From Escherichia coli (GTDB lineage Bacteria > Pseudomonadota > Gammaproteobacteria > Enterobacterales > Enterobacteriaceae), in the NCBI RefSeq assembly GCF_003334335.1, contig NZ_QOWQ01000107.1: a stretch of 1,427 nt of DNA. One strand, given 5' to 3'. Positions 183 to 1,427 of the stretch are shown here, one piece after another. How positions within the stretch are numbered: position 1 is the first letter of the stretch; the number at the start of each line of letters is the position of its first letter. The translations under genes and the position numbers were made by a program. The notes under the pieces are model-generated. The model was not told the origin of the DNA. It worked only from the letters and a program-made list of their open reading frames with translations, and made no database searches.

Positions 183-194
183 GGGCGGCGACCT
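183..194 (+). other. cosN cohesive-end sequence GGGCGGCGACCT; predicted nicks between 182/183 (top strand) and 194/195 (bottom strand), giving 12-nt 5' overhangs
   Basis: Seen in sequence: exact 12-mer GGGCGGCGACCT, preceded by CCGTTACG and followed by CGCGG. Established knowledge: this is the lambda cohesive end, with the flanks as I recall them for the lambda right and left termini. Confidence 0.85.
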
Positions 195-231
195 CGCGGA
201 TTTTCACTATTTATGAAAATTTTCCGGGATC

Positions 232-243
232 CATGTCCGGTTT
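232..243 (-). repeat. R3-like putative small-subunit binding element (AAACCGGACATG on the minus strand)
   Basis: Seen in sequence: catgtccggttt is the exact reverse complement of the 12-mer at 319-330. It sits at offset 50-61 from the left end, close to lambda R3 as I recall it. Confidence 0.5.
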
Positions 244-252
244 CTCTGCAAG

Positions 253-285
253 TTAACCATATGAAAAATATAAAAACATGCTTTC
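253..285. promoter_or_regulatory. AT-rich, A-tract-containing spacer; candidate IHF-binding/bending site analogous to lambda I1
   Basis: Seen in sequence: ttaaccatatgaaaaatataaaaacatgctttc lies between the first and second repeat copies. The minus strand reads CATGTTTTTATATTTTTCAT, reminiscent of the lambda I1 segment as I recall it. I could not find a clean match to the IHF consensus WATCAANNNNTTR. Confidence 0.3.
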
Positions 286-288
286 CAT

Positions 289-300
289 GAACCGGACATG
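289..300 (+). repeat. R2-like putative small-subunit binding element (GAACCGGACATG, 11/12 match)
   Basis: Seen in sequence: the 11-mer AACCGGACATG (290-300) is identical to 320-330. Offset from the left end is 107-118. Confidence 0.5.
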
Positions 301-318
301 CGCAAAAAATAGACACTA

Positions 319-330
319 AAACCGGACATG
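319..330 (+). repeat. R1-like putative small-subunit binding element (AAACCGGACATG), with an adjacent partial inverted copy (ACCGGTTTTG, 331-340)
   Basis: Seen in sequence: aaaccggacatg, immediately followed by accggttttg, so AAAACCGG (318-325) and CCGGTTTT (332-339) form an 8-bp inverted repeat around ACATGA. Confidence 0.5.
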
Positions 331-368
331 ACCGGTTTTGTTGTGATTGTGAGGTGAGAGTTTTTGCG

Positions 369-377
369 AGGTGAGGA
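369..377 (+). promoter_or_regulatory. Shine-Dalgarno region for the small terminase gene (GAGGTGAGGA)
   Basis: Seen in sequence: purine-rich GAGG at 369-372, 5 nt upstream of the GTG at 378. An in-frame TGA at 372-374 closes the frame upstream, so GTG 378 is the first possible start. Confidence 0.55.
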
Positions 378-887
378 GTGGCTACGCAGACTGAAGTTGC
401 CAGGCATTTAAGTCTGACCGATCGCCAGCTTCGCAGATTGCAGAAATTGCCGGGTGCCCCGATATCGAATAAGCGAGGGCAACTGGATCTGGATGCCTGG
501 CGCGATTTTTACATATCGTATCTGAGAAGAAGTAAAAACGATGTGCCTGATGGCGATAGCGAAGACGACTATGAGGAGAAATTGCTTATTGCCAGATGGG
601 AACTGACAGCAGAACAGGCTGTTACACAGCAGTTAAAAAATGAGGTGTCAAAAGGAAAACTTATTGACACCGGGTTCTGTATTTTTGCCCTCAGCAAGCT
701 GGCAATGGCGTTATCCAGTACGCTTGATTCCATCCCTTTATCCATGCAGCGACAGTTTCCTGATTTAACACCGCGCCATCTTGACCATCTGAAAACCCTT
801 ATTGCGAAGGGGGCAAATCAGTGTGCGCGGGCGGGGGATAAATTACCGGATTTACTCGATGAATATATCAGAGCAACAACTGAATAA
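378..887 (+). CDS. nu1: Terminase small subunit (lambda Nu1 family), 169 aa, GTG start; N-terminal winged-HTH DNA-binding domain divergent from lambda, C-terminal large-subunit-interaction region conserved
   Basis: Complete ORF in the supplied track. Its C-terminal half (GFCIFALSKLAMALSSTLDSIPLSMQRQFPDLTPRHLDHLK...LPDLLDEYI) aligns by eye to lambda Nu1 as I recall it (AFCTFVLSRIAGEIASILDGLPLSVQRRFPELENRHVDFLK...IPGLLSEYI). It lies directly after cos and overlaps the gpA-like gene as in lambda. The N-terminus (EVARHLSLTDRQLRRL) fits an HTH pattern but differs in sequence from lambda. Confidence 0.9.
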   Translation: MATQTEVARHLSLTDRQLRRLQKLPGAPISNKRGQLDLDAWRDFYISYLRRSKNDVPDGDSEDDYEEKLLIARWELTAEQAVTQQLKNEVSKGKLIDTGFCIFALSKLAMALSSTLDSIPLSMQRQFPDLTPRHLDHLKTLIAKGANQCARAGDKLPDLLDEYIRATTE

Positions 888-1427
888 TATGATGAGTGCT
901 GTCACAACAGCATTACAGCCCCTGATAAGGGCATTGCCGGTGACGCCAGTTGAATGGGCTGATCAAAATTATTATCTGCCTAAAGAATCTTCATATGGTG
1001 AGGGAGAATGGAAAACGCTGCCGTTCCAGATCGCCATCATGAACAGCATGGGGAATGATCAGATCCGGACTGTTAATCTGATTAAATCTGCCCGTGTTGG
1101 CTATACAAAGATGTTGCTAGGAGTCGCCGGGTATTTTATTGAGCATAAATCCCGAAACAGTCTGCTTTTTCAGCCCACGGATTCTGCCGCTGAAGATTTT
1201 ATGAAGTCTCACGTGGAGGCGACGATTCGGGACGTGCCATGCCTGAAAGATCTTTCCCCGTGGCTGGGACGTAAACATCGTGACAATACTCTCACGCTGA
1301 AACGCTTTTCATCGGGGGTGGGCTTCTGGTGCCTGGGTGGTGCGGCAGCAAAAAACTACCGTGAAAAATCCGTGGACGTGGTCTGCTATGACGAACTTTC
1401 CTCGTTCGAGCCGGATGTCGAAAAAGA
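859..1427 (+). CDS. A: Terminase large subunit (lambda gpA family), N-terminal 189 codons; 3' end lies beyond the window
   Basis: My translation from ATG 859 (frame +2 relative to the small subunit gene) gives MNISEQQLNNMMSAVTTALQPLIRALPVTPVEWADQNYYLPKESSYGEGEWKTLPFQIAIMNSMGNDQIRTVNLIKSARVGYTKMLLGV..., open to the window end. This matches lambda gpA as I recall it (MNISNSQ...VEWADANYYLPKESAYQEGRWETLPFQRAIMNAMGSDYIREVNVVKSARVGYSKMLLGV), including Y46, K76 and K84 of the KSARVGY(S/T)K ATP-binding segment (nt 1084-1110). The ORF is absent from the supplied track, presumably because it has no stop codon in the window. Confidence 0.92.
   Translation, partial: MNISEQQLNNMMSAVTTALQPLIRALPVTPVEWADQNYYLPKESSYGEGEWKTLPFQIAIMNSMGNDQIRTVNLIKSARVGYTKMLLGVAGYFIEHKSRNSLLFQPTDSAAEDFMKSHVEATIRDVPCLKDLSPWLGRKHRDNTLTLKRFSSGVGFWCLGGAAAKNYREKSVDVVCYDELSSFEPDVEK

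Follow-up and report, generated by a model that had tools for sequence, protein, structure and literature searches.

The junction analysed here is best explained as a lambda-like boundary between the genes for the small (TerS) and large (TerL) terminase subunits, in which an ancestral out-of-frame overlap is kept, TerL starts at the ATG in position 859 and its initiation is proposed to depend on a weak Shine-Dalgarno (SD) sequence; we put the probability of this reading as a whole at roughly 80%. The arrangement is already known, being the conserved one annotated in lambda and its relatives. The window, i.e., the whole analysed stretch of 1427 nt, comes from a lambda-like E. coli prophage and takes in its cos site together with the first part of the head-gene operon. 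The junction itself is made up of the following features:

378..887, plus strand: gene for TerS, Nu1 family, with GTG start and TAA stop at 885-887
859..1427, plus strand: 5′ part of the gene for TerL, gpA family, with ATG start; the gene extends beyond the window end
859..887, plus strand: dual-coding overlap, encoding the TerS C-terminus (D)EYIRATTE* and the TerL N-terminus MNISEQQLN
848..850, plus strand: weak SD-like GGA, 8 nt before ATG 859, within the TerS codons for Pro-Asp

The Terminase Genes and Their Overlap

The earlier note had taken the two reading frames for a small and a large terminase subunit, and domain searches bear this out, placing both in the lambda type. The TerS product matches Pfam Phage_Nu1 over residues 49-150 (E 1.4e-18) as well as PHROG 57 and 1790, both described as terminase small subunit, the N-terminal ~50 residues showing no match to the Pfam Nu1 model; its gene is preceded by an SD of its own, GAGGU at 368-372, with pairing energy of −7.2 kcal/mol. 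The frame opened by ATG 859 runs uninterrupted to the window end over 189 codons, and in the near-identical (99.8%) prophage L001 the full-length TerL amounts to 642 aa and contains both GpA_ATPase (E 1.8e-54) and GpA_nuclease (E 7.6e-71) domains. Over residues 1-189 the protein is 66-67% identical to lambda gpA, the alignment beginning at residue 1. Solved structures of gpA-type TerL, looked for by sequence, were not found.

The 29-nt out-of-frame overlap described earlier proved to be real: it occupies 859..887 and holds nine sense codons plus the stop, ATG 859 being in the +1 frame with respect to TerS (378 mod 3 = 0; 859 mod 3 = 1). The TerS frame ends with ...LLDEYIRATTE and the TAA at 885-887, while ATG 859-861 consists of bases 2-3 of the Asp codon 858-860 and base 1 of the Glu codon 861-863, so that the TerL start is assembled from the Asp-Glu codons of a conserved TerS motif, LP-x-(L/M)-L-(D/S)-E-Y-(I/L). 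The same coordinates, 378..887 and 859 onward, are given by PGAP (NZ_LR134079) and by the records of PhiR12 phages. The earlier note had also likened the MNIS beginning of TerL to that of lambda gpA; this holds for the protein, which begins (M)NIS in lambda too, but not for the codon, as the lambda start is GTG 711 and not ATG.

Origin and Mosaic Structure of the Window

The window is 99.8% identical to E. coli NCTC9112 and 98.7% identical to PhiR12 phages, and at least 80% of its length is found in 1134 of 5426 complete E. coli genomes. Directly 5′ of the small-subunit gene it contains cosN and a set of repeats, as a cos terminase operon does:

183-194: cosN, GGGCGGCGACCT, the same letters as lambda bases 1-12 (cohesive end)
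232-243: cosB-like repeat CATGTCCGGTTT
290-300 and 319/320-330: cosB-like repeat AACCGGACATG, in opposite orientation
327-338: cosB-like repeat CATGACCGGTTT

Inverted and direct repeats of AACCGGACATG are thus located at 232-338 in the position of cosB, the last two of them making a near-perfect palindrome at 313-344. These repeats are unlike the R sites of lambda and are probably the binding sites of the TerS type encoded in the window. In the records of PhiR12 phages a 40-aa hypothetical protein is annotated on the minus strand within cosB (window 207-329, corresponding to 3207-3329 in L002). This open reading frame spans the putative TerS-binding repeats and has no counterpart among the PGAP calls; the annotation is probably spurious.

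Comparison with other phages revealed a mosaic of three parts. Bases 1-227, including the cosQ/cosN part, are 94% identical to Stx1a-converting phages, and bases 941-1427, in which TerL continues from codon ~28, match phage 21 at 81.6% identity, while the middle stretch (228-~905), made up of cosB, TerS and the first ~16-27 codons of TerL, constitutes a separate module that is specific to the TerS type. Within a single TerL cluster formed at 90% identity (7535 members), at least four unrelated N-terminal modules of ~27 residues were encountered, namely, MNISEQQ..., MNTSEKQ..., MISDAQK... and (MGYQICLQTTLESQI)HKFVFPF.... Module types other than that of the window are sometimes called from upstream starts in this cluster.

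Conservation of the TerL Start

The position of the start codon was compared in 171 fetched loci, which were anchored on the invariant Trp33 of TerL and gave 64 distinct junctions; the set extends as far as Pseudomonas phages (55-59% identity) and one Ralstonia phage (44%), and counts obtained for the family are inflated by phylogenetic non-independence of the relatives. In 62 of the 64 distinct junctions ATG or GTG is located exactly 32 codons 5′ of Trp33, a frequency for which chance does not account. The overlap measures 29 nt in 45 junctions and 26 nt in 17, the latter including one exception (L145), where TTG stands one codon earlier. Ralstonia phage YO041_1 possesses an ATG at the homologous position with a computed overlap of ~59 nt. 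For Vibrio phage ST2-1pr, a 44-nt overlap with TTG start is annotated at 958-1001. Since the overlaps in these two phages are longer or different, the 26/29-nt design is confined to the branch formed by enterobacterial and Pseudomonas phages.

Several other properties of the junctions converge on the same codon. In lambda-type relatives the TerL frame is interrupted by a stop 3 nt ahead of the start codon, and several junctions contain no other start codon before Trp33, so that the position of the start is forced there. The N-terminal part of TerL is of equal length in seven of the eight aligned relatives, and the TG of the start codon is invariant throughout 47 distinct protein classes. The preference given earlier to 859 over the downstream ATGs at 889 and 892 is therefore upheld by the homologous start present in 62 of 64 junctions and by the lack of conservation of the latter two, and ATG 859 is, by this comparative evidence, the best-supported and indeed a well supported start of TerL. 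An exact-sequence look-up in a collection of 15 billion proteins retrieved the TerL of L001 in the 859 form only, a result that mirrors the practice of gene callers and not experiment.

The overlap bears the marks of a segment read in two frames. Wobble positions of the TerS frame have an entropy of 1.04 bits within the overlap vs 1.68 in the single-coding flank, and for the TerL frame the corresponding values are 1.09 and 1.75 bits, which shows that dual coding constrains the third codon positions of either frame. The relative L097 (95% identity) differs from the window at four sites of the overlap, each of them synonymous for TerL. Relatives with at least 98% identity have zero variants in 858-896, but as no more than ~1.5 would be expected there, this agreement carries no information on dual coding. 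Comparison across the relatives indicates that the out-of-frame overlap is ancestral to the Nu1/gpA terminase family.

Shine-Dalgarno Sequence of TerL

According to the earlier note, no strong SD precedes 859, and for the window this is correct: the best anti-SD pairing 5′ of 859 is provided by GGA at 848-850 and amounts to −3.3 kcal/mol, a background-like value, vs −7.2 kcal/mol for TerS's own site. Pairing of this strength was matched or beaten at 26-34% of control positions, taken either from all the window or from within the TerS gene. The family as a whole looks different, with GGAG, GGGG or GGTGG at the homologous site, 8-11 nt upstream, in most relatives and with a mean SD energy of −5.2 kcal/mol vs −2.1 kcal/mol at control positions within TerS. 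The TerS wobble bases concerned are G at −11 in 38 of the 47 classes and G at −8 in 35 of them. Codon preference of E. coli favours GAA and GGC/GGT, and G at −8 runs against it. Thus, the family appears, from these alignments, to maintain a moderate SD embedded in the TerS coding region, and since most relatives have it, direct initiation seems to account for at least part of TerL synthesis in this family. The clade of the window belongs to the seven of 47 classes having T at −8 and to the weakest versions of the site, although L097 from the same clade has GGAG with −6.1 kcal/mol, and Glu in place of the TerS Asp. With an SD that does not rise above background, the clade might initiate TerL very poorly if unaided, and coupling to TerS translation would then carry more weight than we assign to it below.

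Alternative Starts and Translational Coupling

Two further in-frame positions and the relation between TerL initiation and TerS termination have to be weighed against direct use of ATG 859:

823..825, plus strand: in-frame GTG, 12 codons 5′ of ATG 859, judged not functional
889..894, plus strand: in-frame ATG 889 and ATG 892 (TerL codons 11 and 12), alternative start candidates

If TerL started at 889 or 892, the genes would not overlap and the large subunit would be produced by classical short-distance reinitiation. The sequence TAA-T-ATG-ATG does place the first ATG 1 nt past the TerS stop, a stop-start spacing ideal for reinitiation, and several other lineages also have an in-frame ATG as codon 11; nevertheless, codons 1-10 (MNIS..Q..N) are kept as protein back to Pseudomonas phages and accumulate substitutions that leave the TerL residues unchanged, there is no ATG at this place in lambda, phage 21 or PhiR5_1, codon 11 specifies simply a variable hydrophobic residue (L, M, F, A, V or I), and individual relatives have CTG at 889 (L105) or GTG at 892 (L100 and L104). 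An SD before these ATGs is absent (−1.9 to −2.1 and +0.4 kcal/mol), and the exact 632-aa form is missing from the same collection of 15 billion proteins, all of which makes such a start very improbable. Equally hard to credit is initiation at GTG 823, which would add 12 residues to the N-terminus and extend the overlap to 65 nt. This codon, overlooked in the earlier note, follows the only strong SD of the region, AAGGGGG at 807-813 (−10.8 kcal/mol vs −3.3 for ATG 859), with 9-nt spacing, in frame and without a stop before 859, so that a start-finder weighting the SD could miscall TerL at this point. Yet the extension varies non-synonymously in close relatives (VRGRGINYRIYS, VRGQGINYRIYL, ...ICW, ...CRSYS) over a TerS sequence that does not change, some of the close-relative haplotypes have a weaker SD, the frame in lambda-type relatives is closed by the stop 3 nt before the TerL start, and a search of the 15 billion sequences for the L001 protein with exactly this extension gave nothing. 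The TerL peptide associated with the GTG 823 start is RGRGINYRIYSMNIS. Both GTG 823 and ATG 889 could give rise to minor products, and we regard it as doubtful that the clade makes a set of N-terminal isoforms, i.e., the full-length 859 form, the 889/892 form shorter by 10 residues and possibly the 823 form longer by 12; if it does, the isoforms would differ in TerS binding, because TerS specificity resides in the first ~27 residues of TerL, and could tune the share of TerL in the holoenzyme. Fusion of the two subunits by a programmed +1 frameshift in the overlap was rejected as next to impossible. The TerL frame is indeed +1 to that of TerS and open for 66 nt before 859 in the clade, and the rare codon AGA occurs at 870-872, but 859-887 shows no known slippery sequence or +1 shift motif, the would-be site is not conserved among relatives, the frame is closed just before the start in lambda-type phages, and the conserved start codon argues for separate initiation.

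Strict coupling deserves more attention, though we consider it unlikely. It implies that TerL lacks a ribosome binding site of its own and is made only by ribosomes which have finished TerS at 885-887 and moved back 26-29 nt to 859, the two products being held at a fixed ratio. Such a scheme accords with the weak SD before 859, with conservation of the overlap across the family and with the frequent finding that the products of an overlapping gene pair are subunits of one heteromeric complex (PMC10666635); in phage fr, ribosomes are known to reinitiate backward over −38 nt at the coat-lysis pair (PMC12548453). Termination-reinitiation in E. coli, however, drops steeply with the distance between stop and start and has its natural peak at −4/−1 (PMC10666635; PMC12548453), these spacings being dominant and the efficiency reportedly collapsing within ~20 nt of added distance (PMC10666635). 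The spacing of the window is −29 nt to ATG 859, and a short one (+1) exists only for the non-conserved ATG 889. Moreover, the scanning model derived from the fr coat-lysis pair holds that the start nearest to the stop is used (PMC12548453), a rule that in the window favours ATG 889, 1 nt past TAA, so that coupling of the scanning type and a start at 859 fit together poorly. Coupling by RNA unfolding would call for a stable structure sequestering the ribosome binding site or start, and none was found in the fold of 810-930, whose energy of −30 kcal/mol compares with a shuffle mean of −26.2 (z = −1.2), the mean probability of being unpaired around the ATG 859 start being 0.50; with no significant fold, this model has no support. 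At the junction, the search in Rfam gave only a chance sub-threshold match to a snoRNA, and no promoter-like site was found. Most relatives, furthermore, retain a moderate SD at −11 to −8 in spite of the codon preference, which speaks against strict coupling. The protomer of lambda terminase consists of one TerL and two TerS molecules (PMC7229814), so output at 1:1 is not what is needed; this stoichiometry, 1:2 and not 1:1, also counts against coupling at a fixed ratio. Published experiments on translational coupling between lambda Nu1 and A or on the N-terminus of gpA were not found in the accessible literature.

Direct, inefficient initiation at ATG 859, modulated by translation of TerS, appears to accommodate these observations better. 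In the mechanism that we propose, 30S subunits would initiate TerL with low efficiency at the embedded site by means of its weak SD, represented here by GGA. Ribosomes finishing TerS would pass over this site, stop 26 nt downstream and probably modulate TerL initiation, be it by clearing structure, by local supply of subunits or by transient occlusion of the site. TerS would then be synthesized in excess over TerL, as suits the 1:2 protomer, and TerL might even depend strictly on translation of TerS.

What the Overlap Encodes

Apart from its effect on translation, the overlap may matter for what it specifies. The C-terminal part of TerS is known to bind TerL, and the N-terminus of TerL to bind TerS (PMC6739421, PMC3224144, PMC4669245). 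The 29 shared bases correspond to the extreme TerS C-terminus and the extreme TerL N-terminus; by analogy with lambda, the overlap is taken to encode the ends of the two mutually interacting protein parts. Such superposition would prevent the two interacting specificity segments from being separated in the DNA, within a mosaic cassette composed of cosB, TerS and the TerL N-terminus, and this physical linkage of interacting ends is a plausible reason for conservation of the overlap, independent of translation. Linked ends would help to account for the joint movement of cosB, TerS and the first ~27 TerL codons as a single mosaic cassette.

The practical value of the analysis lies in keeping ATG 859 as the TerL start in a prophage module that is very common in E. 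coli. Conservation of the Nu1/A overlap extends from phages of enterobacteria to those of Pseudomonas and Ralstonia. Beyond correct annotation its importance is small, and the role of the overlap in setting the subunit ratio is an old and minor question.

Comparison with Known Systems

Overlaps to which that of the window may be compared range from unrelated gene pairs to direct homologues. The coat-lysis overlaps of phages fr and MS2 (−38 and −50 nt, respectively) likewise have an out-of-frame start located tens of nucleotides before the stop and provide the best precedent for coupling over such a distance (PMC12548453); they differ in that coupling has been experimentally shown and that MS2 needs a defined inhibitory hairpin, whereas the window has no significant predicted structure. 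Genes 1 and 2 of SPP1, together with other terminase pairs joined by AUGA (−4), have a downstream ribosome binding site that is unrecognisable, and coupling was proposed for them (PMC6316719), but their overlap is the 4-nt one of standard coupling and the terminase families are unrelated.

Genes 1 and 2 of phage 21 (OL657228: 189..737, 709..2637) share with the window both the 29-nt overlap and the ATG start, in addition to the 81.6% DNA identity from 941 onward. They belong to another specificity type, with WIDDFRRAEGS at the TerS C-terminus and MISDAQKAAN... within the first ~16 residues of TerL, and the SD there is annotated and stronger (−6.8 kcal/mol). In lambda, nu1 and A (NC_001416: nu1 191..736, A 711..2636) are homologous genes located directly 3′ of an identical cosN, TerL starts at the equivalent codon of the TerS motif LL(S/D)EYI in the +1 frame, as here, and the segments that bind each other and set partner specificity are the C-terminus of TerS and the N-terminus of TerL. 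Lambda deviates from the window in its GTG start, 26-nt overlap and the TGA immediately upstream in frame, in the better SD (GGGG, −5.7 kcal/mol) and in the lack of an in-frame ATG past the stop; the N-terminal DNA-binding part of TerS and the cosB repeats differ as well. The window nevertheless has the arrangement that characterizes the lambda-type operon, with a +1-frame TerL start placed 26-29 nt ahead of the TerS stop, the distance being 29 nt here.
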